Assembly (NCBI GenBank): GCA_964577375.1
Contig: CAZNYW010000003.1
Location: 40,802-104,801 of the forward strand
Length of the DNA: 64,000 nucleotides
Reading direction: 5' to 3'
Origin: an uncultured Spirochaetales bacterium
GTDB lineage: Bacteria > Spirochaetota > Spirochaetia > DSM-27196 > DATKUC01
Positions 10,612 to 64,000 of the stretch are shown here, in pieces. Each line of letters opens with the position of its first letter. The first letter of the stretch is position 1. The notes under the pieces are model-generated. The model was not told the origin of the DNA, searched no databases, and saw only the letters and a list, made by a program, of their open reading frames with translations. The position numbers and the translations under genes were made by a program.

Positions 10612-10644
10612 TTTTCTTACCTCGTGTCGGAGTGCAGCCCTGAA

Positions 10645-11976: not shown

Positions 11977-12005
11977 TTCACACCCCTTCTGTTATGCAGC
12001 ATGTC

Positions 12006-12989: not shown

Positions 12990-13035
12990 ATTCTCCTATT
13001 GCTCGATGCAACGCGATTCGGCAGAATTGCCGATC

Positions 13036-14067: not shown

Positions 14068-14089
14068 CAGCTCACTCCTTGCTGCGCTG

Positions 14090-14530: not shown

Positions 14531-14572
14531 TCACTTCCTCCTCAGTTATTCCTGGCCGGATGACGGCCGCAC

Positions 14573-40208: not shown

Positions 40209-41080
40209 TGACCATCCGTGATGCGCTCATGGAGACCACAGCGACTCTCGGCTCGAACGGGGTAGAAACGCCCTACCTCGATGCGCTCATTCTGCTCTGC
40301 CATGCGCTCGACGTCTCCAAAGAACGGCTGTTGAGCGATCTTCGCGAGGAGCTCCCCGAGAAGGGCCTCCGGGCTTTCCGCGAATCGGTCGCGCAGCGGC
40401 TTGCCGGGCTGCCGGTTTCATACATTCGCGGCGTCAAGGAGTTTTACGGCCGGGAGTTCCTGGTCGACAGGCGAGTGCTCGTGCCGCGTCCCGACACCGA
40501 GCTGCTGGTGGAGACAGCTCTTGCCCTCGCCGACGCCAATCCGGCGATCCGCCGGATTCACGACTGCTGCACCGGAAGCGGCTGCATCGCCATCACGCTC
40601 CAGGCGGAACGGCCGCAGCTTTCGGTATCGGCGTCGGACATAAGCCCGGCGGCGCTCGAGGTCGCGGCTGCAAATGCCGCCCGCCTGCTCGACCCTCCGG
40701 AGACGAATGGTGGCCCCGCGCTTATGCTTGTCTGCAGCGATCTGCTCGATTCCGTAGACTGCGGATTCGATCTCATCACGGCGAACCCGCCCTATGTCAC
40801 CAGCGAGGAGTACGCGGCAATGCGGGAGCGGGGATGGCCCGAGCCGCAGAATGCGCTCGACGGCGGTGATGACGGCCTGGACCTGGTGCGGAGACTGGTC
40901 CCGTCGGCCATGGATTGTTTAGACCAAAACGGCTATCTTTGTGTCGAGACAGCAGATCCGCAAACAGACTCTGCCCGTACAATCATGGTAAACGCAGGAT
41001 TTGCCGATGTGGTAACACATAGGGACCTTGCAGGCAGGGGCCGGGTCACCGTGGGACGAAAGCCGGGTCAAGAGCTCTGA
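40208..41080 (+). CDS. prmC: release-factor glutamine N5-methyltransferase
   Basis: SAM motif DCCTGSGCI and catalytic NPPY. TAATG overlap with prfA. Confidence 0.9.
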   Translation: MTIRDALMETTATLGSNGVETPYLDALILLCHALDVSKERLLSDLREELPEKGLRAFRESVAQRLAGLPVSYIRGVKEFYGREFLVDRRVLVPRPDTELLVETALALADANPAIRRIHDCCTGSGCIAITLQAERPQLSVSASDISPAALEVAAANAARLLDPPETNGGPALMLVCSDLLDSVDCGFDLITANPPYVTSEEYAAMRERGWPEPQNALDGGDDGLDLVRRLVPSAMDCLDQNGYLCVETADPQTDSARTIMVNAGFADVVTHRDLAGRGRVTVGRKPGQEL

Positions 41081-41084
41081 GGCT

Positions 41085-46536: not shown

Positions 46537-48363
46537 CTACAGCTCACGCACCGCCCCGCGGTCGGCCGAGGTCACATGTTTCGCGTACAGGCGAAGCGCC
46601 GCGGATACGGTCCGCTCCCGCGGACCCGGCGTGTACGCCTCCGCACCCCGGCTCTCCTCTTCCTTCCGGCGTGAGGCGAGCTCGGATTCTTCGAGTCTGA
46701 GGTTTATCGAGCGGTTGGGGATGTCGATGTCTATGATGTCTCCGTCGCGCACCAGCGCAATTCCACCACCCGCCGCCGCCTCCGGAGATACGTGGCCGAT
46801 CGAGAGCCCGCTCGTGCCGCCGGAAAATCGGCCGTCGGTGACGAGCGCGCAGCTCTTGCCCAGATGCATGCTCTTGATGTAACTGGTGGGATAGAGCATC
46901 TCCTGCATCCCGGGACCGCCTCTCGGTCCCTCGTACCGGATGACGACGACGTCGCCCTCCTTGACGCGGCCCTCGAGGATTCCGTCGCAGGATGCATCCT
47001 GGCTGTTGAATACTTTTGCCGGCCCGGAGAACTTCAGGATGGAGGAGTCGACCCCGGCGGTCTTCACGATGCAGCCGCTCTCCGCGAGATTGCCGAAGAG
47101 AACTGCGAGCCCGCCGTCGGGATAGTAGCAGTGCTCGACGTCGCGGATGCAGCCGCCGGCGCGGTCGCGGTCGAGATCCTTGAAGCGGGACGCCTGCGAG
47201 CCCATGGTCCGGCTCGGTACACCTGCGGGTGCACTCTCGAAGATGGACTTCGCCTCCTCACGCAGGTCCGCGCGTGTAACGTCATACCGGTCGATCGCCT
47301 CACCGAGGGTAAGACCGTCGACGCGATTCACCGAGCGATCGACGAGGCCACCACGGTCGAGCTCCGCCATTATGGACAGGATCCCACCGGCCCGGTTGAC
47401 GTCCTCGACGTGAAAGTGCGAGCTCGGCGCAACCTTGCAGAGGCAGGGAATCTTTCTCGAAAGCATGTCGATATCGCTCATGGTGAAATCGACGCCCGCT
47501 TCGTGCGCTATCGCCAGGAGGTGCAGTACGGTGTTGGTGGATCCGCCCATTGCGATATCGAGCGCCATGGCGTTCATGAACGCTGCCTTGGTGGCGATCG
47601 AGCGCGGCAGAACCGAGCTGTCCTCCTCGCCGTAGTAGCGGTTCGCGAGCTCCACGATACGGGCGCCGGCCTCTTCGAAGAGCTTCAGCCGGTTTGCGTG
47701 CGTGGCCACGATGGTTCCGTTTCCAACAGGCGCCATACCCAGCGCTTCGTTGAGGCAATTCATGGAGTTTGCGGTAAACATTCCCGAGCACGAGCCGCAG
47801 GTCGGGCAGGCCGCGTTTTCCACCTGATCGATCTCCTCATCGGAAACCGAGGAGTCGGCCGAGAGAACCATGGCGTCGATCAGATCGTACTTCCTGTCGC
47901 CGATTCTCCCCGCTTCCATTGGTCCCCCGGAAACGAAGATGGTGGGGATGTTCAGCCTCATGGCGGCAATCAGCATTCCCGGCGTGATCTTGTCGCAGTT
48001 TGAGATACAGATCAGCGCGTCTGCCTGGTGGGCGTTGACCATGTATTCCACACTGTCGGCAATGAGGTCTCGGGAGGGAAGCGAGTAGAGCATTCCGTCG
48101 TGACCCATCGCGATTCCGTCGTCCACGGCGATCGTGTTGAACTCGGCGGCATAGCAACCCTGCCGTTCGATGATCTCCTTCACCCGCTGGCCGATCTCAT
48201 GCAGGTGCGTATGTCCCGGTACGAACTGGGTGAACGAATTCGCAACCGCGATGACCGGCTTTCCGATCTGCTCGGTCTTCATTCCCGCTGCGCGCCACAG
48301 GCTCCGCGCGCCCGCCATCCGCCGCCCCATAGTGGTCGTTGCGCTTCTCAGACGAAATGCCAT
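46537..48363 (-). CDS. ilvD: dihydroxy-acid dehydratase
   Basis: The N-terminus [23 protein letters not shown]...[10 protein letters not shown] is colinear with E. coli IlvD. CDKITPGM and GGPGMQEML motifs. Confidence 0.95.
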
Positions 48364-48427
48364 AGCTTCCTCCGAGGTTTACTTTACCGATAAAGAATTT
48401 GCGGGTCAACCGAGGAGATGCGTACGC

Positions 48428-48895
48428 CTACAGGCGCTGCATCTCCTCCATCTCGAGGATGAGGTCGAATACGTCCTGGGGCTGAGAGCAGTTCATGATC
48501 TTGCTCAGGAAGTTGGGACTTCCGACCAGACGCGCGCTCTTCTTGAGGATTGCCAGGTGCTTGTCGGAATCATACCGGTCGTCGATCAGAAGCATCACAA
48601 CGTGCGCCGGCTTCCCGTCCGGCGCACCGTAGTCGATACCCTGCTTGGACACACCAAAGGCACCGACGGTCCGCTTGAAGAGCCAGAGCGAAGCATGAGG
48701 CAGGGCGATGTTGGGAGCAACGAGCGTGCTCATTACGCTCTCACGCTGCCACAGGGCGTCCATGATTCGGTTGGGATCCGAAATCGCGCCCGTGTCCTCC
48801 AGGAAACTCACCATTTCGTGAAACAGCTCGGTTTTTGTCTTGCTTGCGAGGTCGACCTTGATTCGGTCCACGCTGAAAATTTCAGAAAGCAACAT
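48428..48895 (-). CDS. PTS EIIA(Ntr)/PtsN-like protein
   Basis: EIIA-2 fold pattern with the phosphorylatable His in NIALPHAS. I place the start at MLLSEIF (48895), with GGAGGAG 8 nt upstream. The gene lies 27 nt downstream of the V-ATPase K gene. Confidence 0.78.
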   Translation of the reverse strand: MLLSEIFSVDRIKVDLASKTKTELFHEMVSFLEDTGAISDPNRIMDALWQRESVMSTLVAPNIALPHASLWLFKRTVGAFGVSKQGIDYGAPDGKPAHVVMLLIDDRYDSDKHLAILKKSARLVGSPNFLSKIMNCSQPQDVFDLILEMEEMQRL

Positions 48896-48922
48896 CGCTG
48901 CGGCTCCTCCCGGTGACACGGG

Positions 48923-49396
48923 CTATTTTATCAGACCACCCATCAATATGACAGTCACCAGCCCAAGAATCGCGTAAAACTCCGGAAATGCAGCAAGAAC
49001 CAGCGTGTTGCCAAAGACGTTGTGGCCAGATCCTATCGACGTAATGCCGGACGCACAGACCTCTCCCATCTTGATGCCGGAGAAAAGGTTCACCGCGCCA
49101 AGCCCGACACCGGCGCCAAAAATCAGCGCCGCCTGGTACAGCGTCATCTGCGGGGACATATACCCAGCGTAGATGATGTAGCCGACGAACCCGTACAGCC
49201 CCTGTGTCGACGGCAGCGCCGAAAGCACGAGGTTAACGCCGAAGGTTTCGGGACGTTTCCGGATAGCACCGATTACCGCGTTACCGGCCGTGACAATCCC
49301 GATCGCCGACCCGATACCTGATAGCCCAAACATCAAACCCAATCCAAGTGCCGCCCAGGTGATGTTACCGCCCATTGCAGCTGCAATCGCTCCCAT
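48923..49396 (-). CDS. ntpK: V-type ATPase proteolipid subunit K
   Basis: Four-helix c-subunit duplication, LPSTQGLYGF and PEFYAILG motifs. Confidence 0.9.
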   Translation of the reverse strand: MGAIAAAMGGNITWAALGLGLMFGLSGIGSAIGIVTAGNAVIGAIRKRPETFGVNLVLSALPSTQGLYGFVGYIIYAGYMSPQMTLYQAALIFGAGVGLGAVNLFSGIKMGEVCASGITSIGSGHNVFGNTLVLAAFPEFYAILGLVTVILMGGLIK

Positions 49397-49447
49397 GAAA
49401 ATCCTCCAAGTCTAATAGATCTATCGTTCCCACACGGAATCAAAGTT

Positions 49448-51316
49448 TCAAGTTTTCAGTTCGAAGGGGCGATATTCCACCCCGCCGCCTTTGAACCCGA
49501 CCGAGTTGTAGAACTCGACGAAAGTGAGCCTCAAGGAGTGAACGAAAGCGGACAGCAGTCCGATCGCCAGATTTACTCCCGACCCAATCAGAAGCACAAG
49601 TATCATCGGAAAGATGCCCCACCACGCGTCGCCCTTTACCATTACCGACAGGTTGATTACCGTCTCCCCGAGCAGTGCGCCCGAGAGCCCAAGCGCAAAC
49701 AGACGCAGATAGGAGAGGATGTAACCGGGAACCGTGGTCGCAAGCTCGTAAAGCTCCCACAGGCCCAAGAGCGGCCGCAGAAAGATCTTCTTTTCCAGAC
49801 TGTTGAACAACAGCAGCAGCACTAGCCCGACTGCAATCATTCCGAAGCCAATCTGCTGCACTGAGGGAATCATTGCTGCGGCGGCGCCGAACGGTATCGG
49901 TCCGACTTTGAATGATGGGCCGAGCGAATGCAGCGCGGCAAGCACGATCCCTACAAGCATCAGTATGATACCTGCAGGTTTCAACGCCGCCGCAGGACCA
50001 TTTGCCCGCACCTGATTTATCGCACGCAGCACGTACCCGAACGTTATCTGTACGATGCCGAGGGTAATCGCGAGCATCATCGCGCTATTGACGCTGCCGA
50101 ACAGCACCGCCTGCGACAGGGCAGAATGAGGTCCTGCCAGACTTGTGATCTTGATGCCGAAAAGATCGTTCAACAAGAGCCCGAAAACAATTATCGAAAC
50201 CGAAAGTATCAGCCCGAGATACAGCAGCGGCCTCACCGACTTGCGTTTGATCACCGCGAAAGCAATGAGAGCGGCCACCAGCAGCAGAATACCGTAGCCC
50301 AGATCTGCAACACAGAGGCCGAAGAAAATGGTATAAAACGGCGCAAAGAAGGGTGTCGGGTCCAGCTCCCGGTAGTTGGGAATGCTGAATATCCGGAGAA
50401 TAGGCTCGAACAGCCGGGTATATCCGCCGTTGTGAAGCTTAACCGGAACCCTGTCTTCGGGTTCGGGTTCTTCGAGCAGGAATGCCGCCTCTTCATCTGA
50501 AAGAAACTCCTCGAGGCGGCTGCGCTGCCGGGCCGGGATCCACCCCGTGAGAAAGTAGAGATGGCCTTCACCGGCATCGTGAGCACTCGCAACGACCGTC
50601 TTGAAGGAGAGCTCGTTCTGCAGCTCGGCATTACGGGCCTCGAGCGTACCGGTGTACGGAAGCAGAGCGTCGATCTCCGAACGTGCCTCGGCAAGCCCCT
50701 CGTCGACCTTTGCCATACGTTCCCGGACGAGTGTGACGTTACGCTCGGGAAGGCGTTCTTCCGGCACCGAAATCGGGGTTCCCTCTTTGTCGTCCGGACC
50801 AACGACCGCGAAGTACGCCGTTCCTTTGTCTTCAAATAACGGGACGTAGGAGCGGCGCGCATCGCCCTCCATCTCTTCGGCAATATGCGCAGCGGTCGCA
50901 AGGGTCGCCGAATGGACCGACATTCGGAGCCCGAACTTGTCGAGCCCTTCGATCAGCTCCGGATCGAAGTTGCCCCAGCGTTCGGCGGCGGCAAGCTCCC
51001 GCACAAGCTGCGCGCGTTCAGTTTCGTACCCGTCGATCCGGACACGAAGCAGGTCGATCTTCCGGATCAGATCGTCGGCCTTTCCCGGATATTGTGCCGC
51101 CGAAGGCTGCTCCGGAAGCTCGGCAGCTCGCTGCCGCAGGTAGTTTTGAAGCTGCACGATCCGGCTTATCCTTGCCGCGAGCCGCGAAATATCGGGGTCG
51201 TCTTCCACCTGCTGCTGTTCGACGTGCACAATTCCGAACTTCTGCAGTTCAGACACGAACTTTTCACGGGTCGCGGGCCGGAACAGCAGCGTCAGCTTGA
51301 CCATTGGCTCAACCAT
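49448..51316 (-). CDS. ntpI: V-type ATPase subunit I (a-subunit homologue)
   Basis: Soluble coiled N-terminal half plus a polytopic C-terminal half with ...LSYLRLFALGL... (conserved Arg). Position in the operon agrees. Confidence 0.9.
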   Translation of the reverse strand: MVEPMVKLTLLFRPATREKFVSELQKFGIVHVEQQQVEDDPDISRLAARISRIVQLQNYLRQRAAELPEQPSAAQYPGKADDLIRKIDLLRVRIDGYETERAQLVRELAAAERWGNFDPELIEGLDKFGLRMSVHSATLATAAHIAEEMEGDARRSYVPLFEDKGTAYFAVVGPDDKEGTPISVPEERLPERNVTLVRERMAKVDEGLAEARSEIDALLPYTGTLEARNAELQNELSFKTVVASAHDAGEGHLYFLTGWIPARQRSRLEEFLSDEEAAFLLEEPEPEDRVPVKLHNGGYTRLFEPILRIFSIPNYRELDPTPFFAPFYTIFFGLCVADLGYGILLLVAALIAFAVIKRKSVRPLLYLGLILSVSIIVFGLLLNDLFGIKITSLAGPHSALSQAVLFGSVNSAMMLAITLGIVQITFGYVLRAINQVRANGPAAALKPAGIILMLVGIVLAALHSLGPSFKVGPIPFGAAAAMIPSVQQIGFGMIAVGLVLLLLFNSLEKKIFLRPLLGLWELYELATTVPGYILSYLRLFALGLSGALLGETVINLSVMVKGDAWWGIFPMILVLLIGSGVNLAIGLLSAFVHSLRLTFVEFYNSVGFKGGGVEYRPFELKT

Positions 51317-51926
51317 CGGCTAACTCCTCTTCAAGTTCCTGTGCTTCCGCGCGTTGCTTTGTGATCTTTTGAACAGCGGTATCGAGATTTGCGACATCCT
51401 CCAGGTATCGTTTGATACGGCTGATTGCTTCGCCGTAAGCGGGAATCTGCACCTTCTCGTAAAGATTTACCTTTTGCGTTGTCTTGCGTCGCGCCGATTG
51501 AATGACCTCGATTCCTTTGGAGACCACTTCCATTCGTGTCAGCATTGTCGTCAAGTCGCGGAGAATAATGACTCCTGTGGAAACCCACAGCGGCCGGTGG
51601 AAACGGGAAAAATCGCGAAGGTTGAAGTCGATTCTCTCGATGTCGGGAACTTCTACGCCGGCAATTCTGCTCCGCTTTATGAGTATCTCTTTCAGCTCGT
51701 AAATATGCGATGGGAACTCCGCCCAGAGCCGGATATCGCCGCGAAGCTGCGAGAGCTTTTTCTCGTACTCGGCCTCGAGCCGCGCATATTCGTCTTTCTG
51801 CCTTTTCTCAGTGACACGGAGCGCCGCTTCCTTGCTCTTGAGAATAGGAAGCGCAGATTCGCGGATCTTCAGCTGGCGCTGAAGCATCTGCATGGACACT
51901 TTGTTGAATTGATATTTCAACTCCAT
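51309..51926 (-). CDS. ntpD: V-type ATPase subunit D
   Basis: About 205-aa coiled-coil protein, ...LPILKSKEAALR..., located between B and I. Confidence 0.88.
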   Translation of the reverse strand: MELKYQFNKVSMQMLQRQLKIRESALPILKSKEAALRVTEKRQKDEYARLEAEYEKKLSQLRGDIRLWAEFPSHIYELKEILIKRSRIAGVEVPDIERIDFNLRDFSRFHRPLWVSTGVIILRDLTTMLTRMEVVSKGIEVIQSARRKTTQKVNLYEKVQIPAYGEAISRIKRYLEDVANLDTAVQKITKQRAEAQELEEELADG

Positions 51927-51929
51927 GGC

Positions 51930-53261
51930 TCACGCCTCACTGCCCTTCCAGTATTTCTCGAGAATCGACTCCTTGATGCCGATTTCGGAACGATGGAAGT
52001 ATGTGCCAAGGAGATCCCAGGCCGCATCGAGCATCTGCTCGATCTGCAGATTAACGTCGATAGCAAGAAGCCTCGTCGAGTAATCGGAGGCGAACTTGAT
52101 TGCGCGGGTATCGTAGTCGGTAAGCTCGAAGCCGTTGTCTCGCTTCGTCCGGGCGTTCGCCGCATCTGAATAGAGGCGCACCGCAGCGTTCATCACCTGC
52201 GGATGGTCTTCGCGGGTCTTCTTGCCGATCACAAGCTGCTTCAACCGCGACAGAGACCGAAACGGATCGACGATGACCTTGTTGATGTCACTGTCCTTGC
52301 GAAGGAACAGCTGTCCTTCCGTGATATAGCCGGTGTTGTCGGGAACCGCATGGGTGATGTCGCCGCCGGAAAGAGTCGTCACCGCGATGATGGTGATCGC
52401 GCCACCGCCGGGAAACTGTGCGGCCTTCTCGTAGATTTTCGCGAGGTCGGAATAGAGCGAACCCGGCATCGAGTCTTTCGACGGTATGCGATCCATCTTG
52501 TTGGCGACGATGGCGAGCGCGTCGGCGAAGAGCGACATGTCGGTGAGAAGCACCAGAACATTCTGGTTGTGATCCACCGCAAAGTACTCTGCGGCGGTTA
52601 GCGCCATATCCGGTATGAGCAGCCGTTCGACCGCTGAGTCGTCGGTGGTGTTGACGTAGCTGATAATCTTGTCGAGCGACCCGGCATTGTCGAACAGCTC
52701 ACGGTAGTAGAGATAGTCGTCGTTCGACATGCCCATACCGCCGAGAATGATCTTGTCTGCCTGTGCACGAAGAGCGACGTCGGCCATCACCTGGTTGTAG
52801 GGCTGGTCGGGGTCGGCGAAGAACGGAATCTTCTGACCGGTAACGATCGTGTTATTCAGATCGATCCCCGCAATGCCTGTCGCGATGAGTTCCGACGGCT
52901 GGCGTCTCCGCACCGGGTTGAGCGATGGACCACCGATCTCGCGCTCCTCACCTTCGACCGGGGCACCGCCGTCGATCGGATCGCCGTATGCATTGAAGAA
53001 GCGGCCGGCCATTTGCGGAGAAACGCGGATCATCGGCGGTTTTCCGGTGAAAACGACCTCCGCATTGGTGCTGATGCCTTCGGTGCCTTCGAAAACCTGC
53101 AACGTCACCTCATCGCCGTTAATCTGCAGCACCTGCGCGTGTCGTCCTGCGACGTAGGCAAGTTCTTCGTTGGATACGTCGGTCGCGTGGAGTGAGCAGG
53201 TCGCCTTGGTAAGCTTTGATATCTTGGTGTAGACCCGCTGAAAAGCGCTGGTTTCTCTCAT
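51930..53261 (-). CDS. ntpB: V-type ATPase subunit B
   Basis: A/B-family non-catalytic subunit: ...GQKIPFF..., ...LTDMSLFADAL..., ...PGSLYSDLAKIYE... Confidence 0.95.
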   Translation of the reverse strand: MRETSAFQRVYTKISKLTKATCSLHATDVSNEELAYVAGRHAQVLQINGDEVTLQVFEGTEGISTNAEVVFTGKPPMIRVSPQMAGRFFNAYGDPIDGGAPVEGEEREIGGPSLNPVRRRQPSELIATGIAGIDLNNTIVTGQKIPFFADPDQPYNQVMADVALRAQADKIILGGMGMSNDDYLYYRELFDNAGSLDKIISYVNTTDDSAVERLLIPDMALTAAEYFAVDHNQNVLVLLTDMSLFADALAIVANKMDRIPSKDSMPGSLYSDLAKIYEKAAQFPGGGAITIIAVTTLSGGDITHAVPDNTGYITEGQLFLRKDSDINKVIVDPFRSLSRLKQLVIGKKTREDHPQVMNAAVRLYSDAANARTKRDNGFELTDYDTRAIKFASDYSTRLLAIDVNLQIEQMLDAAWDLLGTYFHRSEIGIKESILEKYWKGSEA

Positions 53262-55027
53262 TTTGCAGCCTCCTCAGCCACAGCCCGCTCCTTGATGATC
53301 GCCAGGAGCTCATTCTCGTGGCGCTTGAAATCGTCGGACTGAAACTCGCTGTAATTCATCTGCCTGAAGGAGTTGATGATTCGTTTGAAGTACGCGCCCA
53401 CCTGCTCGAAACTGTCGAAATTGTATTCCTGCGAGCACATGTCGAGCACCCGGTCGAGCATGTATTTCTGCCGTTCGAACGGTGTCACCGAATCGACCGG
53501 GTCGAACGCGTCCTGCTGCATGAGTACGAAATCGATGGTTTCCGATTTCCAGAATGTTGTGTGATAGTCGACCGGCACCCCGTCGTCGCCGAGGATATTG
53601 ATCTGGTCGTCGGCTTCCTTGCCTCGCTGCGTCCAGTTCTTTGCCTCGAGGACCTTTTCAACCCAGTCGGGATCGAGCTTCTCGGCAAGATATTTCTCGA
53701 TTTCGGGGTACTCGAGATACTTCGAGTAACTGTCGATCGGGTCAACTGCCGGGTACCTTTTCGAATCGGCACGTGCCTGGGACAACGCGTAAAAACAACG
53801 CGCCGACTTCTTGGTCGATTCGGTCACCGGTTCCTTGAGGTTGCCGCCGGCCGGAGAGACCGTACCGATGAATGTCACCGATCCGGTTTTTCCGTTGTTC
53901 AAGCGAACGATGCCTGCGCGCGAGTAGAAGGAGGCTATGATTGCCGGAAGGTCCATCGGAAACGCGTCGGGACCCGGCAGCTCCTCGAGCCTGTTCGACA
54001 TCTCGCGCAGGGCCTGGGCCCACCGCGAAGTCGAATCAGCGAGCATAAGAACCCGCAGCCCCATGAGTCGGTAGTACTCCGCAATTGTCATCGATGTATA
54101 GACGGACGCCTCACGGGCAGCTACGGGCATGTTTGACGTGTTGCAGATGATGGTGGTGCGTTCCATCAGTTTTCGGCCGGTACGCGGATCGATCAGCTCG
54201 GGAAACTCGGTGAAGAGCTCGACGACCTCGTTTGCGCGTTCGCCGCAGGCGGCCATGATAATGATGTCGGCTTCCGCGTTTTTCGAAACTGCATGTTGAA
54301 GGACGGTCTTGCCGCAGCCGAACGGCCCCGGGATAAATCCCGTTCCGCCTTCGGCGATCGGGTTGAATGTATCGATAACGCGCACGCCGGTCTCGAGCAC
54401 GCGATAGGGCCGCGGCTTCTCCCTGTACGCGGTTATGGCCCGCTTCACCGGCCATCGCTGCATCATCGTCACCTCGACCGACTTGTCGTCGCCGTTCTTG
54501 AGTACGGCGATGACATCCGCGACTCGGCGGGGACCGGGAGGCTCGATCGAAACGATTGTCCATACCCCTTCGAGATCGAACGGAACCATGATCTTATGGT
54601 TCAGCCAGTTCTCCTGCACTTCCCCGAGCCAGTCCGCAGCGCGGACGGTATCGCCGACGTGACCGTAGGGGATAAAGTCGTAGCTCTGATCCCGGTCGAG
54701 CGGTTCCACGTACTCCCCGCGCTTGAGGAAAAGTCCCACCTTCTTCTCGAGATCTCCCTGCAATCCGTCGTAGATCCGGGAAAGAATTCCGGGGCCCAGT
54801 TCGACCTCGAGCATTCGCCCGGTGAACTCGACCTCGGCGCCGATCTTCAATCCGCGGGTTGTTTCGAACACCTGCGCGAACGCGCGGTCGCCGTTGACCC
54901 GGATGACCTCGCTCATGAGATTATCGCCTTTGGTGCTGACATAGCAGATTTCGTTCTGTGAAACCGGCCCATCGACGCGTATAGTCAAGAGATTACTGTT
55001 GATCCCTACTACTCTTCCTGCCGTCAT
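53258..55027 (-). CDS. ntpA: V-type ATPase catalytic subunit A
   Basis: Walker A GPFGCGKTV, ...ADSTSRWAQALREMS..., and the non-homologous insert typical of A subunits. I place the start at MTAGRVVGINS. Confidence 0.95.
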   Translation of the reverse strand: MTAGRVVGINSNLLTIRVDGPVSQNEICYVSTKGDNLMSEVIRVNGDRAFAQVFETTRGLKIGAEVEFTGRMLEVELGPGILSRIYDGLQGDLEKKVGLFLKRGEYVEPLDRDQSYDFIPYGHVGDTVRAADWLGEVQENWLNHKIMVPFDLEGVWTIVSIEPPGPRRVADVIAVLKNGDDKSVEVTMMQRWPVKRAITAYREKPRPYRVLETGVRVIDTFNPIAEGGTGFIPGPFGCGKTVLQHAVSKNAEADIIIMAACGERANEVVELFTEFPELIDPRTGRKLMERTTIICNTSNMPVAAREASVYTSMTIAEYYRLMGLRVLMLADSTSRWAQALREMSNRLEELPGPDAFPMDLPAIIASFYSRAGIVRLNNGKTGSVTFIGTVSPAGGNLKEPVTESTKKSARCFYALSQARADSKRYPAVDPIDSYSKYLEYPEIEKYLAEKLDPDWVEKVLEAKNWTQRGKEADDQINILGDDGVPVDYHTTFWKSETIDFVLMQQDAFDPVDSVTPFERQKYMLDRVLDMCSQEYNFDSFEQVGAYFKRIINSFRQMNYSEFQSDDFKRHENELLAIIKERAVAEEAAK

Positions 55028-55862
55028 CTTCTTTGTCTCCGATGTGTGAAAACTCGAGGGAGAACCGCACACTCCGGCGTACCGCATTGAGGAGCTCGCC
55101 GAAAAGCTCGTCGCCCTTTTCTTCGTTCAGTGTCTGCCATCGTTCCACGGATTGGTACTTGACGACATAACTGAGAATGAAATCTATAGAGAAGAACTGC
55201 GACCCCACTCTCTCGTCGAGCCAGTTCCAGCGGATGCGTGCCATTGTCTCTTCATGCGCAGTGAGATCGGTCGTCTGGAATACTCGAACCAACTCCTCTA
55301 CGAAGGGAAACTCGGCGGCAAGCCCGAAGTCGGGCGGATTCGCCGTCATAATCGCGTCGTACGCGTCACCGCGAGGAATCAATCGCTCTCGATACGGAAA
55401 ACCCTGGCTCTCACGGCTGAGCGCGATCGTCAGGTTCCGGAAATCAAGCTCGCGCCTGAAGTAGTCCCGGACAAACTCCGACTCTATGTTCCCGAGCATG
55501 TCATAGAAAAGAATGGAAAGCTCATCAATGAGGGGAAGATCCGGGTATGCGCGCGCGTTGCTGCGCAGGAGCTCGAAAAACTCGTTCAGGAAAGGCAGCA
55601 CGTCGCCACCTGTCTGGGCCGCTTCCATCAGGGTATCCCGATCGTAGCAGGAGGGGGTGACGAAGCTGTCTTCCGCATTGTGGTAAGAGATGGCATTTCG
55701 CATGTCGTGCATGAGGAAAAGCTGCCGCAGCGCGACCCGGTCATCGGGTTGGAGATTGGATTCCAGGTAGTCGATCAGCTCTTGCAGCGTTTCCCGCGGT
55801 ACGTCCTGGCCCCACTTCACATCTGCGAGACTGGCGGCCAGAAAGTAGTAATTGTGTCTCAC
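54993..55862 (-). CDS. DUF2764-family protein (occupies the C/d-like slot in Bacteroidota/Spirochaetota-type V-ATPase operons)
   Basis: N-terminal NYYFLAASL... pattern, and its position between subunits E and A. Family assigned from memory. Confidence 0.65.
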   Translation of the reverse strand: MRHNYYFLAASLADVKWGQDVPRETLQELIDYLESNLQPDDRVALRQLFLMHDMRNAISYHNAEDSFVTPSCYDRDTLMEAAQTGGDVLPFLNEFFELLRSNARAYPDLPLIDELSILFYDMLGNIESEFVRDYFRRELDFRNLTIALSRESQGFPYRERLIPRGDAYDAIMTANPPDFGLAAEFPFVEELVRVFQTTDLTAHEETMARIRWNWLDERVGSQFFSIDFILSYVVKYQSVERWQTLNEEKGDELFGELLNAVRRSVRFSLEFSHIGDKEDDGRKSSRDQQ

Positions 55863-56515
55863 CTACCCTGCCCTGCCTGCCGGTTGTTCGAATCGGCGAC
55901 CTTTTCCGTATTGGACGGAAACAGCGCCTCGCGGGTACGCTGTCGGAGAAAACCCTGAAAGAAGGAGACAAAGTCCTCCTCCTGGAACGAGATGCGGTAG
56001 CTGCCGTCTTTCGGGCGAATCCGAAAGCCGGTTTTGACCTCGTCGCTGTAGGTCAGATCCAGTCCCCTATCGAGCATGTCCTTCGCTTTAGCAGCGAAGT
56101 GATTCGTCATAGCTTCCCGGCGTTCGGGGGGAAGAACCACCGAGATGTCCACGCTGGTTTCGCCAACGTTCCATTTCTCCACGATGTCACGAATGAGCTT
56201 CTGTATGAACGCTTCATCCGACAGGCCGGCCTTGACGCCCGCGGGAAGCGTATTGTCCACAAGACACTCGGTAACACGGTTTTCCAGCTGGGCGAGAGCC
56301 TGCTCGCCTGCGAGCTTCAGTTCGGCGGATAGTCGCGCCCTTGACTGCTCAGCCTCGCTTTTTGCCGTTTCAACGATTTCCGAGGCTTTCTTATGCGCTT
56401 CGGCCAGTATTCGGTCGGCTTCTTTGCGCGCGTTTTCGAGCAGTTCTTCTTCCTGCTCTTTCGCTTTGGCAACGCCTTCCTCGTAGATCTTCGTTGTGAG
56501 GTCTTCCAACTTCAT
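55859..56515 (-). CDS. ntpE: V-type ATPase subunit E
   Basis: Long charged N-terminal helix (KIYEEGVAKAKEQEEELLENARKEADRILAEA...) plus a globular C-terminus. First gene of the operon. GGAGGG upstream. Confidence 0.85.
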   Translation of the reverse strand: MKLEDLTTKIYEEGVAKAKEQEEELLENARKEADRILAEAHKKASEIVETAKSEAEQSRARLSAELKLAGEQALAQLENRVTECLVDNTLPAGVKAGLSDEAFIQKLIRDIVEKWNVGETSVDISVVLPPERREAMTNHFAAKAKDMLDRGLDLTYSDEVKTGFRIRPKDGSYRISFQEEDFVSFFQGFLRQRTREALFPSNTEKVADSNNRQAGQGR

Positions 56516-58330: not shown

Positions 58331-58344
58331 GAGGAGGCCGACCC

Positions 58345-59475
58345 ACGACACTCCCGGCGAAATCCGGCGCCTATGTCATCGCAGAGATCGGCACTTCGCA
58401 CGGGGGCGACCTCGGGCGTGCGGCCGACCTCATCGCCGCCGCCGCCGCTGCCGGCGCCGACTGCGCCAAGTTCCAGGCAGTCTACGCGGATGAGATCATC
58501 CACCCGGCCACTGGCACCGTTCCCCTTCCAGGCGGCGAGATACCGCTCTTCGCGCGGTTCCGCAGCCTCGAAAGGCCGCCGGACTTCTATGCGGAGCTCA
58601 AACAGCAAACAGAGGCTACAGGCCTGCGATTCCTCTGCACGCCTTTCGGCCTCCGAAGCGCGCGAATGCTCCGGTCGATCGGCACCACCGAGCTGAAAAT
58701 TGCCAGTCCGGAGCTCAACCACATTCCCCTTCTGGCCGAGATCGCGTCATACCGCCTCCCGGTCTACCTGTCGAGCGGTGTATCCACCCTCGGCGACATC
58801 GAAGAGGCGCTCCAGATCCTTTCCGATGTTCCCGTTACCCTCCTCCACTGCGTCACCGCCTACCCTGCGCCGCCGGAAGACTACAATCTCCTCCTGCTCC
58901 GGGCGATGGCGACTCTCCTGGGAGTCGCGGTAGGGGTCTCGGACCACACGCTCGATCCGGTCCTCGTGCCGGTTCTGGCTGTGACCCAGGGCGCCGCGGC
59001 AATTGAAAAGCACATAACGCTCTCCCGCAGGAGCGACGGGCTCGACGATCCGGTCGCGCTCGAGCCGGCCGACTTTGCCCGCATGGTCCGCGAGGTCCGG
59101 TCGGCCGAGAAGGATCTGAAGGCCGGACGGGCCGCTGAGCTCGAGGCTGAGCTCGAGATTGCCTACGGAGCGGACAGGGTACGCACCGTGCTCGGAAACG
59201 GAATCAAGCGCCTTGCTCCTTCGGAGGCGGACAATTACGGCAGAACCAACCGTTCGATACACGCGATCCGGGCGCTTTCAGCGGGCGGGTGTATAGGCCG
59301 GGAGGACGTCGCGGTGCTGCGCACCGAGAAGATCCTCACCCCCGGGCTTCATCCCCGCTACCTCGAACAGGTTATCGGAACTACGCTTTCCCGCCCTGTT
59401 GCAGACGGTCAGGGAATCAACTGGAGCGATCTCGTCCGAAACTGCCGGGATGTCGACGCAAAAACACCACCATGA
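58345..59475 (+). CDS. NeuB-family (sialic/pseudaminic/legionaminic acid synthase-like) PEP-condensing enzyme with a C-terminal SAF domain; start codon unresolved
   Basis: Frame 1 reads ...AYVIAEIGTSHGGDLGRAADLIAAAAAAGADCAKFQ (NeuB TIM-barrel N-terminus) from about 58372, continuous with the track ORF 58666-59475. The C-terminal SAF-like region is IHAIRALSAGGCIGREDVAVLR. There is no ATG/GTG/TTG in frame between 58249 and 58666. The start given here is an ACG 7 nt after GAGGAGG; a CTG at 58327 is an alternative. Confidence 0.75.
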   Translation, partial: TTLPAKSGAYVIAEIGTSHGGDLGRAADLIAAAAAAGADCAKFQAVYADEIIHPATGTVPLPGGEIPLFARFRSLERPPDFYAELKQQTEATGLRFLCTPFGLRSARMLRSIGTTELKIASPELNHIPLLAEIASYRLPVYLSSGVSTLGDIEEALQILSDVPVTLLHCVTAYPAPPEDYNLLLLRAMATLLGVAVGVSDHTLDPVLVPVLAVTQGAAAIEKHITLSRRSDGLDDPVALEPADFARMVREVRSAEKDLKAGRAAELEAELEIAYGADRVRTVLGNGIKRLAPSEADNYGRTNRSIHAIRALSAGGCIGREDVAVLRTEKILTPGLHPRYLEQVIGTTLSRPVADGQGINWSDLVRNCRDVDAKTPP

Positions 59476-59590
59476 TATAGTGGACTGAGAAATTATGATT
59501 ACCGGCAGCGTCAGCAAAAGATGATAGGCAGCGCTCCTACACATAACTGCAACTACCACTGACACCACCTCTACCAAGGGAGGCTCGCTG

Positions 59591-62500
59591 ATGAAAAACA
59601 GAACCGGGACAGACGTTTTCGTCGATCTGCTGCTCGATCTCTTCCGTCACATGGTTACCGCACGTGAGATGGACCTGCTCGAACAGGAATATACCCGGCA
59701 AGGCGAGGCGTTTTTCCATGTTTCCGGCGCCGGACACGAGGCGACTGCCACTCTGAATCCCTATCTGATCCCTGATGACTGGCTTCACGTGCACTACCGG
59801 GACAAGGCGCTCATGCTTGCCCGCGGAATCCGCCCTGAGATGTTCTTTCACAGCCTGTTCAACAAGGACGGAGCGCACTCCCGCGGACGGCAGATGAATG
59901 CACACATGAGCGCGCCCGAACTCAACATAATGAGCCTGGTGGGACCAGTCGGGAACAGCCCGCTGCAGGCAGCGGGAGTTGCCGCGGTGATCAAGGACCG
60001 GCCGTCCAAACCGATAGTCCTCTGTGCTGTCGGCGACGGGATGACCCAGCAGGGAGAGTCCCTCGAAGGCCTTGCACAGGCGGCCCGCGACCGGCTCCCG
60101 GTGCTCTTCCTGGTGGAGGATAACGCCTTCGCCATATCCACCAAGACCCGCGGACGCACCTTCTACTCCCTGCCCGACGGGAGAGCCGACTCAGTATTCG
60201 GTATGCCGATCACGCACATGGACGGCCGCGACCCTGTCGCCTGCTACGAGCAGTTCGGCCGGATCATTCCGGCGATGCGGGAGACGCGCGAGCCGCTGGT
60301 GATCATATTCGAGGCGGACAGGCTCCAGAATCACACCAACGCCGACGACCAGCGGATGTACAGGACGCCCGAGGAGATCGAAGCGCTCTGGAAGACCGGA
60401 GACCCGGTTGCCAATCTGGAGAACGAACTTCTCGGCCGCGATGTCGATGCCGGAACACTCCGAAAGATCATGGCTGACGTCCGTGCCGAGCTGAAGGAGA
60501 CGGCACGGAAGGTCCTGCGCAGCGCCGAGCCTGCACCGCTCTTTACCGCGTTGAAACCGCTCGAGCCGCGTCTCTCGGACGCCGCTTCGGAATACCGCGG
60601 CAGCGATCATGCCGCCGGCGCGCAGAACAACGGGCAGGACCGGCTCACCATGCTCGAGGCGATCCGCGAGGTATTCCGGACACGGATGGCCAAAGACGAA
60701 CGAATCACTCTCTTCGGTGAGGATATCGAAGACCCGAAAGGAGACGTATTCGGAATCACCCGCGGCCTCACCCAGGCCTATCCCGGCCGTGTGGTCAATT
60801 CTCCCCTCGCCGAGGCATCCATAGTCGGCGTATCGGTCGGCCAGGCTCTCGCCGGCAGACGCCCGGTGGCGTTTCTCCAGTTTGCCGACTTTCTGCCAAT
60901 AGCCTACAATCAGATCTTCGCCGAGCTCGGAAGCATGTACTGGCGTACCGACGGCGGCTGGCAGGCGCCCGTAATCGTCATGATAACCTGCGGCGGCTAC
61001 AAACCGGGGCTTGGTCCCTTCCACGCATCGAGCATGGAGGCCATCGCGACGCACACGCCGGGGGTGGATGTGGTGATGCCCTCGACCGCCGGAGACGCTG
61101 CGGGACTGCTCAACGCCGCATTCGAATCGGGACGGCCGACGCTCTACTTTTATCCCAAGAACTGCCTGAACGACCGGGAGAACGCAACCTCCCCCGATGT
61201 GCACCGGCAGCTCGTTCCCCTCGGACGTGCGCGCATGGTGAGGCGCGGGGACGACCTTACGCTCGTGGCCTGGGGCAACACCGTCGCCCACTGCCGGCAG
61301 GCGGCCGACGCGCTCGCCGCGGCCGGCATCCAGTGCGACGTCATCGACCTGCGAAGCCTGATGCCGTGGGATCAGACGGCCGTGCTCGAATCGGTCGAGC
61401 GCACAGGGCGCCTCATCGTCGTCCACGAGGACAATCATACAAACGGATTCGGCGCCGAGGTCGTCGCTACGGTCGCCGAACGGGCATCGCGGAAGATCGA
61501 GGCGCGGCGCGTGACCCGCGCCGACACCTACGTGCCCTGCAACTTCGGCAACCAGCTGGAGGTTCTCCCCTCCTACAGGCGGGTTCTCGAGACCGCGGTA
61601 GAGCTTCTGGGCGGACGTGTCGAGTGGAGGAAACCGCTCACCGGGGAGAAGAACGTATATCTGGTGGAGGCAATCGGCTCGAGCCCGTCCGACGAGTCGG
61701 TTACCGTCGTCGAATGGAAGATAAAGCCGGGGGACATCATAGAAGACGGCGCCCAGCTTGCCACGCTCGAAGCGGACAAGGCGGCGGTCGATCTCTCCTC
61801 GCCGGTCGGAGGAACGGTTACCGAGCTCCTGGTTGAAGAGGGCGACATGGTCAAGGTTGGAACTCCCATTCTGAGGGTGCGCACCGGAAAAGAAGATGAG
61901 GATGGAGATTGCTCCTACGAGCACATGAAGCCGATAACGCGCGAAGAACCGGGAGACCCCGTGATAAGCGGAATTTCGCGCAGCAAGGCACATGCGCCGC
62001 CCGCCGCCGGAACCGGGACAGGCACCGCAGCCGGCCCGGCAGTGAAGCCTGCCTCTGCCGCCGTTGTGAGCATCGCCGGCATAGCAAGCTCCCGGGGCAA
62101 GCGCACTGTCTCGAACGAAGAGATCGCTTCCCTTTCGCCCGACTGGAGCGCCGACGACATCTTCAAGCGGACAGGAATCGCCTCACGGCCCTGGCTCGCC
62201 GACGGGGAGACCGCTCTGTCTATCGCGCTCGAAGCCTCGCGGAAGCTGCTCGCGGAGAAAAACCTCAGCGTGCGGGACATCGATCTGATCATCTGTTCGA
62301 CCGAAACTCCGATGCAGAACACGCCGTCGATGGCAACGCTGATTCAGAACGGCCTTGCAGACGGCAACGAAGAGGTGCTCTGCGCAGCATATGATGTGAA
62401 CGCAGCGTGTTCAGGCTATATCTACGCTCTTCAGATCGCCTACGACTATCTCCAGAGCTCACCCGGTCACCGGGTGCTCGTCGTCACTACCGAAGCACTT

Positions 62501-63025
62501 ACGCCGCGCCTGAATCTTACCGACTTCGGAACGGCTCCCATCTTCGGCGACGCGTCGACGGCAACAATTCTTGCAGCAGCCGACGCGCCGCTTCCCGGCG
62601 GGCTTCGGGTGCACCGTCCGGTGATCGGAGCCCACGGAGAGGACGGCACCATCCTGCGGGTTCCCTCCGAGGTCGACCAGAAGATCTACATGGACGGGCC
62701 GAAGGTGTTCCTGGAGGCCATCAAGGACATGATGATGATGTTGAACAGGGCCTGTGAGGCGGCTCAGATCGACACCGCCGACCTCGACCTCATCGTTCCG
62801 CATCAGGCAAATCAGCGCATCATCAACGCCATCCGGCAGCGCATGAAGGTGCCCCGCGAAAAGATGTACAGCAACATCGCCAACAACGGGAATACCTCCT
62901 CCAGCACGATTCCGCTATGCCTCGAGGAAATTCTGACCTCAGGCGGCGATGACCGTTATCTCGGGATCGCCGCGTTCGGCGGCGGGTTCACCTTCGGCGG
63001 AGGCGTCCTGGAGCGGCCCCGCTGA
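59591..63025 (+). CDS. four-domain fusion: 2-oxoacid dehydrogenase E1-alpha (TPP), E1-beta, lipoyl domain, FabH-type 3-oxoacyl-ACP synthase III
   Basis: Single uninterrupted 1144-aa ORF with GGGAGG 8 nt upstream. TPP motif GDG-x26-N (aa 148-177). E1-beta region aa ~350-675 (LFGEDIEDPKGDVFGIT...SPLAEAS...). Lipoyl domain aa ~688-764 with LATLEADKAAVDL (K730, nt 61778-61780). Ala/Pro/Gly linker. KAS III region aa ~824-1144 with C940 (AACSGY), H1071 (VPHQAN) and N1101 (GNTSSSTIP). Confidence 0.9.
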   Translation: MKNRTGTDVFVDLLLDLFRHMVTAREMDLLEQEYTRQGEAFFHVSGAGHEATATLNPYLIPDDWLHVHYRDKALMLARGIRPEMFFHSLFNKDGAHSRGRQMNAHMSAPELNIMSLVGPVGNSPLQAAGVAAVIKDRPSKPIVLCAVGDGMTQQGESLEGLAQAARDRLPVLFLVEDNAFAISTKTRGRTFYSLPDGRADSVFGMPITHMDGRDPVACYEQFGRIIPAMRETREPLVIIFEADRLQNHTNADDQRMYRTPEEIEALWKTGDPVANLENELLGRDVDAGTLRKIMADVRAELKETARKVLRSAEPAPLFTALKPLEPRLSDAASEYRGSDHAAGAQNNGQDRLTMLEAIREVFRTRMAKDERITLFGEDIEDPKGDVFGITRGLTQAYPGRVVNSPLAEASIVGVSVGQALAGRRPVAFLQFADFLPIAYNQIFAELGSMYWRTDGGWQAPVIVMITCGGYKPGLGPFHASSMEAIATHTPGVDVVMPSTAGDAAGLLNAAFESGRPTLYFYPKNCLNDRENATSPDVHRQLVPLGRARMVRRGDDLTLVAWGNTVAHCRQAADALAAAGIQCDVIDLRSLMPWDQTAVLESVERTGRLIVVHEDNHTNGFGAEVVATVAERASRKIEARRVTRADTYVPCNFGNQLEVLPSYRRVLETAVELLGGRVEWRKPLTGEKNVYLVEAIGSSPSDESVTVVEWKIKPGDIIEDGAQLATLEADKAAVDLSSPVGGTVTELLVEEGDMVKVGTPILRVRTGKEDEDGDCSYEHMKPITREEPGDPVISGISRSKAHAPPAAGTGTGTAAGPAVKPASAAVVSIAGIASSRGKRTVSNEEIASLSPDWSADDIFKRTGIASRPWLADGETALSIALEASRKLLAEKNLSVRDIDLIICSTETPMQNTPSMATLIQNGLADGNEEVLCAAYDVNAACSGYIYALQIAYDYLQSSPGHRVLVVTTEALTPRLNLTDFGTAPIFGDASTATILAAADAPLPGGLRVHRPVIGAHGEDGTILRVPSEVDQKIYMDGPKVFLEAIKDMMMMLNRACEAAQIDTADLDLIVPHQANQRIINAIRQRMKVPREKMYSNIANNGNTSSSTIPLCLEEILTSGGDDRYLGIAAFGGGFTFGGGVLERPR

Positions 63026-63816: not shown

Positions 63817-64000
63817 GCCAGGATACAAAATGGCCCGCCGACATTGATCGTCTGACGGGCCGGTAGGTCCCCCCATGTGGGTTGGGGTTGCTCCGAATTC
63901 TAATATACCCTGCCACACTTTGCAAGCGATTTGTTGAGAAAACATCGAACGTGCCGCCGCGATTTGTCGATACTAAATCCAAGAGAGATGAGCCATGCGA

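Follow-up and report, generated by a model that had tools for sequence, protein, structure and literature searches.

What is made by an enzyme in which the decarboxylating front end of a 2-oxoacid dehydrogenase, a lipoyl domain and a ketosynthase form one polypeptide? The question is raised by a gene at 59591-63025 (+ strand) in a 64,000-nucleotide stretch of DNA, here called the window, from an uncultured Spirochaetales bacterium (contig CAZNYW010000003.1, positions 40,802 to 104,801). The gene is a single unbroken open reading frame (ORF) of 1144 aa with E1alpha, E1beta, lipoyl and beta-ketoacyl-acyl carrier protein (ACP) synthase III (KAS III) domains in one chain, and its product is referred to below as the fusion. 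We lean slightly toward the view that the fusion represents a lipoylated enzyme of a new class and, with it, a new way to initiate fatty-acid synthesis, in which the lipoyl arm replaces coenzyme A (CoA) and the ketosynthase (KS) is one output of an E1alpha-E1beta-lipoyl (E1ab-lipoyl) cassette that can be plugged into KS, E2, thioesterase (TE), ACP or polyketide synthase/nonribosomal peptide synthetase (PKS/NRPS) modules. What is new is the E1-lipoyl-KAS III combination; each kind of component, the 2-oxoacid dehydrogenase front end and FabH, is known.

A sequence-only reading of this DNA had placed four domains in one uninterrupted ORF, and domain parsing with Pfam and NCBIfam bears this out. 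The Pfam domains, all scored above gathering cut-offs, follow in the order E1_dh (residues 19-315), Transket_pyr (352-526), Transketolase_C (545-656), Biotin_lipoyl (703-762), ACP_syn_III (934-998) and ACP_syn_III_C (1055-1141). The residues and motifs which that reading had named (K730 in EADKA, C940, H1071, N1101 and GGGFTFGG) are all present, and the thiamine pyrophosphate (TPP) motif is intact as stated, although its spacing is x27 and not x26. The reading had also reported no E2 acyltransferase and no subunit-binding domain; consistent with this, neither 2-oxoacid_dh (E2 catalytic) nor E3_binding (peripheral-subunit-binding) has a Pfam match in the fusion ORF or in the precomputed domains of 120 listed homologues. 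The features of the gene and its product are as follows.

59453-59499, + strand: putative own promoter, two overlapping sigma-70-like sites (consensus matches only, weak)
59577-59583, + strand: ribosome-binding site AGGGAGG, 7 nt 5' of the ATG (consensus match)
59591-63025, + strand: fusion ORF (ORF reading, Pfam, NCBIfam, full-length homologues)
59645-60535, + strand: E1alpha, TPP-binding, residues 19-315 (Pfam E1_dh, 3.4e-41)
60032-60124, + strand: TPP motif GDG-x27-N, G148 to N178 (sequence motif)
60332-60334, + strand: E1alpha His248, in NHTNADD (alignment)
60536-60643, + strand: alpha/beta junction, residues 316-351, low-complexity and partly disordered, 18-64 aa in the family
60644-61558, + strand: E1beta, Transket_pyr 352-526 plus Transketolase_C 545-656 (Pfam)
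60812-60814, + strand: E1beta Glu408 (alignment)
61022-61024, + strand: E1beta His478 (alignment)
61607-61657, + strand: E1beta-to-lipoyl connector, 17 aa, of fixed length
61658-61885, + strand: lipoyl domain, residues 690-765 (Pfam Biotin_lipoyl, PF00364, 4.6e-16)
61778-61780, + strand: predicted lipoyl-lysine K730, in LEADKAAVD (motif)
61928-61969, + strand: conserved motif KPITREEPGDPVIS, residues 780-793, part of the E1-lipoyl cassette (family alignment)
61970-62062, + strand: variable flexible linker to the KS, residues 794-824, Ala/Gly/Ser/Pro-rich
62063-63013, + strand: KAS III (FabH-type), residues 825-1141 (Pfam, NCBIfam, structure match)
62156-62158, + strand: Asp856, at the FabH Trp32 position (alignment)
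62408-62410, + strand: KS Cys940 (alignment)
62525-62527, + strand: Phe979, at the FabH Arg151 position (alignment)
62801-62803, + strand: KS His1071 (alignment)
62816-62818, + strand: putative ACP-docking Arg1076 (alignment to E. coli FabH Arg249)
62891-62893, + strand: KS Asn1101 (alignment)

The promoter-like hexamers were placed in the 115-nt spacer upstream and, together with the ribosome-binding site, are weak evidence that the fusion gene would have its own start. The GC content at third codon positions (GC3) is 0.77, the same as in the adjoining genes. A 600-aa ORF antisense to the fusion gene, at 60191-61993 (- strand), was taken as a shadow ORF of high-GC DNA and not as a gene.

Hundreds of independently assembled homologues have the same single-chain architecture. 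Among 5.8 billion proteins, a word-indexed search revealed at least 120 clusters (90% identity) of 1100-1190 aa that have the same six Pfam domains and are 57-88% identical to the fusion, and a fragment from an independent JGI assembly, P0002, is 100% identical across 88% of the fusion protein, which confirms the contiguity of the ORF. In an exhaustive HMMER scan of 1.84 billion representatives at 50% identity, approximately 45 aligned end to end with the fusion, down to 37% identity, and the most distant of these, when checked, still contained all of the domains. A scan of one genome per GTDB species yielded at least 589 confirmed relatives. The best 80 of these are full-length loci from 39 Spirochaetota, 23 Planctomycetota, 7 Kiritimatiellota, 4 Verrucomicrobiota, 2 Armatimonadota and one each of a cyanobacterium, Sumerlaeota, Nitrospirales, a betaproteobacterial metagenome-assembled genome (MAG) and an unclassified uncultured bacterium, so the spread that the sequence-only reading had left to a database search extends over several phyla. 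Judged by these comparisons, the architecture is real and under selection, with the four modules kept family-wide. The names that databases give to the family are automatic only ("beta-ketoacyl-ACP synthase 3", "2-oxoisovalerate dehydrogenase E1 component" and "transketolase"), and a full-text literature search found no description of an E1-lipoyl-KAS III protein, in line with the sequence-only reading, which knew of no described protein with a lipoyl arm tethered directly to a ketosynthase. The family is thus widespread across phyla and unstudied and, because it is large and occurs in many phyla, its biochemistry is directly testable with recombinant protein. One full-length member, P0102 (59% identical), is filed under Marinobacter halodurans on an 11.8-kb contig, while the other close matches are all Spirochaete MAGs, which suggests assembly contamination or horizontal transfer.

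Residue conservation was read from alignments of 60 close and 35 distant family members. G148, N178, H248, E408, H478, C940 and N1101 are invariant in both sets, and D149 of the TPP motif is Asp or Glu throughout. K730 is Lys in 60/60 close and 34/35 distant members, and H1071 is His in 34/35 of the distant ones. The catalytic residues of the homologues are therefore conserved across phyla rather than degenerate, and this pattern indicates that both halves of the protein, and the lipoyl lysine that links them, are under purifying selection. E408, H248 and H478 were assigned by alignment to E1 motifs and to 1um9_B; we take E408 to be the TPP-activating Glu and H248/H478 to be the active-site His residues for reductive acylation of lipoamide, as in E1 enzymes. 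Two members depart from the pattern: P0130 has Asn in place of the lipoyl Lys (LEADNAVVD), and P0163 has Ser in place of the catalytic His and lacks the ACP-docking Arg. These may be degenerate or repurposed copies.

The E1 portion scores far below the equivalog cut-offs for pyruvate dehydrogenase (PDH) and branched-chain 2-oxoacid dehydrogenase (BCKDH), with 172 for TIGR03181 (cut-off 411), 214 for PRK11892 (454) and 186 for PRK09212 (321). The nearest solved E1 structures are the alpha and beta subunits of the Thermus thermophilus branched-chain E1, and the E1beta portion matches the T. thermophilus branched-chain E1beta 1um9_B with 212 bits and a template modeling (TM) score of 0.89. The lipoyl domain was modeled by AlphaFold2 (AF2) as a beta-barrel with a predicted local distance difference test score (pLDDT) of ∼90. 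Its lysine sits in a DKA motif (LEADKAAVD), and lipoylation of K730 is predicted. A biotinyl domain was ruled out, as the motif is EADKA instead of AMKM and the window encodes LplA.

The KS domain scores above the cut-off of the FabH subfamily model PRK09352 (259.3 bits versus 249, residues 825-1141) and below that of TIGR00747 fabH (226.4 versus 292.1), and its fold matches solved FabH structures with TM scores of 0.90-0.93. We aligned 92 fusion KS domains with E. coli FabH, the numbering of which is used for positions in this comparison. Cys112, His244 and Asn274 are kept in 92, 91 and 92 of the 92 domains, and the FGGG oxyanion motif is kept in the fusion KS. The position of Arg249, which we take to be the ACP-docking arginine of E. 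coli FabH, corresponds to R1076 and is Arg in 88/92 and Lys in 3/92. The sequence-only reading had also suggested an OleA-like condensation; such a head-to-head reaction was not supported, as FabH models score best and the ACP-docking Arg is retained.

In E. coli FabH-CoA structures, the adenine of CoA is stacked between Trp32 and Arg151 (PMC4606726). The FabH structures of S. aureus, N. meningitidis and A. aeolicus have this pair as well, and HMMER alignments of the fusion to them place Trp32 opposite Asp856 and Arg151 opposite Phe979. The equivalent W42/R161 of M. tuberculosis FabH is the target of CoA-site mutants (PDB titles). Among the fusion KS domains, the Trp32 position is Asp in 59/92 and Glu in 17/92, and the Arg151 position is Pro in 52/92, Phe in 20/92, Ala in 6/92 and Tyr in 3/92. 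The Asn210 position is mostly Pro, and the Lys257 position is Arg or Lys in 83/92. Of the 35 distant representatives, two have an aromatic residue at the Trp32 position (one Trp, one Phe), and a single one has Arg at the Arg151 position. By alignment, the CoA-adenine clamp is lost in nearly all of the 92 members.

The connectors between the domains differ in how strictly their length is kept. The E1beta-to-lipoyl connector is 17 residues in 60/60 close members, with a median of 17 among the 35 distant representatives, while the linker to the KS varies from 14 to 70 aa across the family and is composed of 20% Ala, 14% Gly and 10% Ser. The Ala/Pro/Gly linker that the sequence-only reading had described after the lipoyl domain does exist as the variable linker 794-824, but it is opened by the conserved motif 780-793 (KPxTREEPGxPxI), which begins about eight residues past the lipoyl domain and in which E785, G788 and P790 are invariant in the 60 members. 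Since the motif is common to the thioesterase variant P0147 and the output-less P0150, both described below, it belongs to the cassette. The full-length AF2 model, made with a 60-sequence alignment, has a mean pLDDT of 86 and a predicted TM score of 0.66, with disorder at 800-821 (pLDDT <50). In this model, the motif has a pLDDT of ∼74 and a short strand at 789-793, whereas a model of the lipoyl domain plus motif alone keeps the barrel (∼90) and gives the motif a pLDDT of 67 without the strand. Because the strand is lost when the rest of the protein is left out of the model, the motif is likely to pack against E1 or the KS; candidate roles are anchoring to E1 and docking of E3. A Foldseek search gave no solved chain that spans more than one of the fusion's domains.

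A further line of evidence comes from proteins in which the cassette carries something other than a KS. In the search of 50%-identity representatives, some align with the fusion only to about residue 793. According to Pfam, P0147 has a thioesterase at the KS position, and P0149, P0180, P0185, P0193 and P0194 have an E2 catalytic domain (E2cat) there and no E3_binding match. In P0198 the E2cat is followed by an ACP. In P0183, E2cat-ACP forms the loading module of a PKS/NRPS megasynthase, whose further domains are a type I KS, a methyltransferase, a condensation and an adenylation domain. P0141 ends in a C-terminal domain of 240 aa without a Pfam match, P0150 has nothing at the KS position, and P0138 keeps the KAS III and continues with a ketoreductase (KR) and an ACP. 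Compared over the cassette, P0141, P0147, P0149 and P0150 are 56-59% identical to the fusion, against a median of 45% among KS-type members, while the other E2cat, E2cat-ACP and PKS/NRPS-linked proteins are more distant. In a neighbor-joining tree of the E1ab-lipoyl part, calculated without support values, all KS-type proteins fall in one clade, P0141, P0147, P0149 and P0150 are nested within it, and the E2cat and E2cat-ACP types are outgroups. The simplest reading of these sequences is that the ancestor was E1ab-lipoyl-E2cat, that the E2cat was swapped once for KAS III, and that whatever occupies this position would receive the acyl group from the lipoyl arm. The position of the E2cat fusions outside the single KAS III clade agrees with the earlier view of the protein as a 2-oxoacid dehydrogenase whose E2 core was replaced by a ketosynthase. 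The swappable output is the strongest comparative support for a lipoyl-to-KS transfer, and the variants together suggest a modular "acyl generator" family.

How would the modules work together? We consider it fairly likely that the fusion is a self-contained, CoA-independent priming enzyme for type II fatty acid synthase-like synthesis, which would be its physiological role. The fused E1alpha-beta would decarboxylate a 2-oxo acid on TPP and reductively acylate the lipoyl group on K730 of the domain joined to its C terminus, LplA being the enzyme that would lipoylate K730. The S-acyl-dihydrolipoyl arm would then enter the KAS III tunnel in the place of acyl-CoA and pass the acyl group to Cys940, and His1071 and Asn1101 would decarboxylate malonyl-ACP docked via Arg1076 to form a 3-ketoacyl-ACP. 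Lastly, re-oxidation of the dihydrolipoyl arm would take place in trans, with Lpd from the PDH operon as the probable dihydrolipoyl dehydrogenase. The predicted net reaction is R-CO-COO- + malonyl-ACP + NAD+ -> R-CO-CH2-CO-ACP + 2 CO2 + NADH. The direct transfer from lipoyl to KS Cys is proposed because the catalytic residues are kept, the CoA clamp is replaced, the outputs are swappable and a KS-KR-ACP variant exists. The same features speak for the CoA-independent channeling put forward in the sequence-only reading, of which the sequence features stand and the mechanism stays a prediction. Support is also drawn from LplA and Lpd being encoded in the same window and from the short-chain dehydrogenase/reductase (SDR/KR) gene that lies downstream of the fusion gene at nine Spirochaete loci. 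The relevant genes of the window are as follows.

9217-15715, - strand: PDH operon, canonical and complete, LplA-E1a-E1b-E2-Lpd (NCBIfam, Pfam)
9217-10611, - strand: Lpd (E3), TIGR01350 531 (cut-off 409)
10645-11976, - strand: PDH E2, lipoyl-PSBD-core (PSBD, peripheral-subunit-binding domain), TIGR01349 443, ∼2 bits under the cut-off of 445
12006-12989, - strand: PDH E1beta, PRK09212 491 (cut-off 321)
13036-14067, - strand: PDH E1alpha, TIGR03182 448 (cut-off 394)
14573-15715, - strand: LplA, operon member

Because the window holds this PDH operon with its LplA, acetyl-CoA formation, lipoylation and E3 would be available in trans. The operon lies ∼45 kb from the fusion gene in the window and 8-10 kb from it in relatives, and the fusion E1 is, by sequence, a second and divergent E1 beside that of PDH. 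Regeneration of the arm had earlier been assigned to the Lpd at 9217-10611. Re-oxidation by this enzyme is plausible, but it is encoded as the E3 in a complete PDH operon, and an E3-binding domain is not recognizable in the fusion.

Regarding the substrate, we weakly favor a branched-chain or other non-pyruvate 2-oxo acid, because the genome has a separate bona fide PDH and because the fusion E1 is most like the Thermus branched-chain E1. A third reason is the Thr found at the Phe87 position in 75/92 fusion KS domains, including that of the fusion itself. Phe87 presumably caps the acyl pocket in E. coli FabH, and we assume that Thr is the residue at this position in the long-chain-specific M. 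tuberculosis FabH.

Several observations weigh against this proposal. The Arg36 position is kept in 74/92 fusion KS domains, and R36 contacts the pantetheine phosphate in FabH; in addition, Trp852, which is invariant in the Spirochaete clade, lies four residues before the lost Trp32. Because R36 is retained and Trp852 is nearby, CoA may still have a site in altered form, and the sequences describe a CoA site that is remodeled rather than provably abolished. No E3-binding domain is recognizable in the fusion by Pfam, which leaves the re-oxidation route unexplained, and no precedent for acyl transfer from dihydrolipoamide to a ketosynthase Cys was found in the literature. The AF2 models gave no usable inter-domain geometry. 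Besides the fusion, no fabH, fabD, acpP or plsX was found in the window or within 10 kb at the other fetched loci, no ACP or other fab gene adjoins the fusion gene there, and at the fetched loci no neighboring gene is conserved across phyla.

Among the other explanations, the one that survives best is that the KAS III-like domain is a transacylase, i.e., an analogue of E2cat which moves the acyl group from lipoyl to Cys940 and on to CoA or holo-ACP to yield acyl-CoA or acyl-ACP. The KS does occupy the E2cat position of the sister proteins, and several KAS III-like proteins, of the DpsC and CerJ types, are acyltransferases. However, simple transacylation would have no need of His1071 (kept in 91/92) and Asn1101 (92/92), which serve malonyl decarboxylation. 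With the oxyanion and FGGG motifs also kept, the loss of the CoA-adenine clamp disfavoring a CoA acceptor, and the KR-ACP added in P0138 being what is expected for a beta-keto product, we regard a transacylase as unlikely.

Alternatively, the two halves might be merely co-localized, such that the E1-lipoyl portion works with a separate E2 (e.g., the PDH E2 at 10645-11976) to make acyl-CoA, which the KAS III would use in the manner of FabH. This would fit the complete PDH with E2 and Lpd in the window, 8-10 kb from the fusion in relatives, and the retention of R36 in most members, but the Trp32/Arg151 adenine clamp is replaced in nearly all of them. In addition, E2 catalytic domains normally act on the lipoyl domains of their own core. 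The fusion carries a lipoyl domain itself but neither an E2 core nor a subunit-binding element, and in relatives with a cis E2cat, TE or ACP the cassette appears to pass the acyl group to the next domain. We therefore hold mere co-localization to be quite improbable.

A third explanation draws on the closest mechanistic precedent for the proposed CoA-independent enzyme, the glycolyl-ACP-forming QncN/QncL/QncM system (also of the SclQ1-4 type) of the tetrahydroisoquinoline and scleric acid pathways. In QncN/QncL/QncM, an E1-like thiamine diphosphate (ThDP) enzyme fused to a lipoyl domain hands on the acyl unit without a CoA intermediate (PMC6335953). If the fusion acted likewise, its E1 would take a C2 unit (glycolaldehyde) from a ketose phosphate, and the KS would be primed with a glycolyl or other unusual unit for a specialized lipid or polyketide. 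QncN and QncL share the ThDP, Transket_pyr, Transketolase_C and lipoyl domains and the CoA-free delivery to a carrier, distant cassette relatives occur in PKS/NRPS megasynthases (P0183), and lipid-related genes (FabF, FabZ-like, PPTase, BioF/Kbl-like and OleD-like; PPTase, phosphopantetheinyl transferase) lie 5-10 kb downstream in the nearest relatives. Despite these parallels the explanation is very unlikely, as by sequence and by structure the E1 matches those of 2-oxoacid dehydrogenases best and not transketolases, the gene usually stands alone among housekeeping genes outside any biosynthetic cluster, and the distribution over many phyla suggests primary metabolism. The systems also differ in design, as Qnc uses an E2-type acyltransferase, a separate ACP and a ketose phosphate, and the fusion a ketosynthase and a 2-oxoacid-dehydrogenase-like E1; no E2-type acyltransferase domain or dedicated ACP follows the lipoyl domain in the fusion ORF according to Pfam. 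P0198 and P0183 (E1ab-lipoyl-E2cat-ACP) are nearer to the Qnc logic than the fusion is.

Finally, an assembly artefact or fused pseudogene, in which two or three adjacent genes were joined by a frameshift or mis-join, has practically no probability left: nothing was found in its favor, and it was ruled out by the 100% match in the independent JGI assembly and the family-wide single-chain architecture, with the continuous ORF recurring in >120 clusters and 80 loci of different phyla, a GC3 of 0.77 like that of the neighbors, and inter-domain connectors that are conserved in length and sequence.

Returning to the proposed CoA-independent priming enzyme, the fusion resembles the PDH and BCKDH complexes in its complete E1alpha and E1beta folds, its TPP motif, putative TPP-activating Glu, two active-site His residues and DKA lipoyl lysine, and in its probable dependence on LplA and Lpd. 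It differs from them in that alpha and beta are in one chain, the lipoyl domain is attached to E1 by the 17-residue connector and not to E2, a ketosynthase stands in place of the PSBD and E2 core, and the E1 falls below the equivalog cut-offs that the PDH E1s of the window pass. The PSBD and E2 core that it lacks are present in the separate PDH E2 of the window (10645-11976). With FabH and KAS III enzymes it has in common the fold, the Cys-His-Asn triad, the FGGG oxyanion motif and the Arg249 equivalent. Unlike these enzymes, the KS forms the C-terminal part of a chain of 1144 aa, has Asp/Glu and Pro/Phe at the clamp positions Trp32/Arg151 and Pro at that of Asn210, and is predicted to take its primer from a lipoyl arm and not from acyl-CoA. 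The two curated family models disagree, with a score above the cut-off for PRK09352 and below it for TIGR00747. On these sequence criteria, the fusion would fit neither the dehydrogenase complexes (no E2 core or PSBD, E1 below cut-offs) nor canonical FabH (clamp, TIGR00747).

Two further systems are instructive. The route through Bkd and FabH in Bacillus, Listeria and Staphylococcus likewise leads from a 2-oxo acid to an acyl thioester and a 3-ketoacyl-ACP, but it uses separate proteins and free acyl-CoA, whereas the fusion is one polypeptide that is predicted to skip the CoA step. In actinobacterial OdhA/KGD, an E1o is fused to an E2o catalytic domain, a precedent for an acyl-accepting domain on E1; OdhA, however, has no lipoyl domain of its own and carries an E2 domain and not a ketosynthase. 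To our knowledge, lipoylated proteins form a very small and well-charted set that consists of the E2s of PDH, 2-oxoglutarate dehydrogenase, BCKDH and acetoin dehydrogenase, plus GcvH, and bacterial fatty-acid synthesis is initiated from acyl-CoA with FabH or by a few alternatives such as FabY and MadA/B. If the proposal is true, the fusion would be a new lipoate client and a CoA-independent start of fatty-acid chains, would account for the way in which chain starters may be selected in some Spirochaetota, Planctomycetota and Kiritimatiellota, and would provide pathway engineering with a compact module, a single protein, for the conversion of 2-oxo acids to primed ACP thioesters.

Housekeeping genes surround the fusion gene, with serS and a NeuB-like gene upstream and tag downstream. 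Synteny that involves serS, NeuB, aconitase and a downstream SDR is seen only among Spirochaetes, where the SDR/KR gene of the nine loci lies on the same strand within 1.2 kb of the fusion gene. In the window, this gene seems to begin at the last bases (∼63995-64000, + strand), as its first codons match the MR... of the relatives. In the two nearest relatives (L086 14274-23489; L087 14231-23217), the 10 kb that follow the SDR/KR gene encode an OleD-like reductase, a flippase-like protein, a Sfp/HetI-type PPTase, FabF, a FabZ-like dehydratase and a BioF/Kbl-like enzyme, a lipid-related neighborhood that would fall past the 3' end of the window.

The NeuB/SAF-like gene upstream (58331-59475, + strand) reads in one frame from 58375 with 56% identity to the 363-aa protein of a relative, and the first 58666 positions of the window offer it no ATG, GTG or TTG in frame short of that point. 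At 58331-58336 there is a perfect AGGAGG, followed 9 nt later by an in-frame ACG (58346-58348). The gene may have a non-canonical ACG start or contain a base error; a frameshift was rejected, as the gene aligns in a single frame. In the PDH operon, a 461-aa ORF at 10624-12009 (+ strand) runs antisense to the PDH E2, has no Pfam match and a lower GC3, and was taken as a shadow ORF. A V-type ATPase operon at 46537-56515 (- strand) lies between relA/spoT (41028-43130) and serS, and its subunits were confirmed by Pfam in L086 and L087. This placement is common to the two nearest relatives and not to the distant Alkalispirochaeta loci, in which an aconitase gene lies between the NeuB-like and fusion genes.

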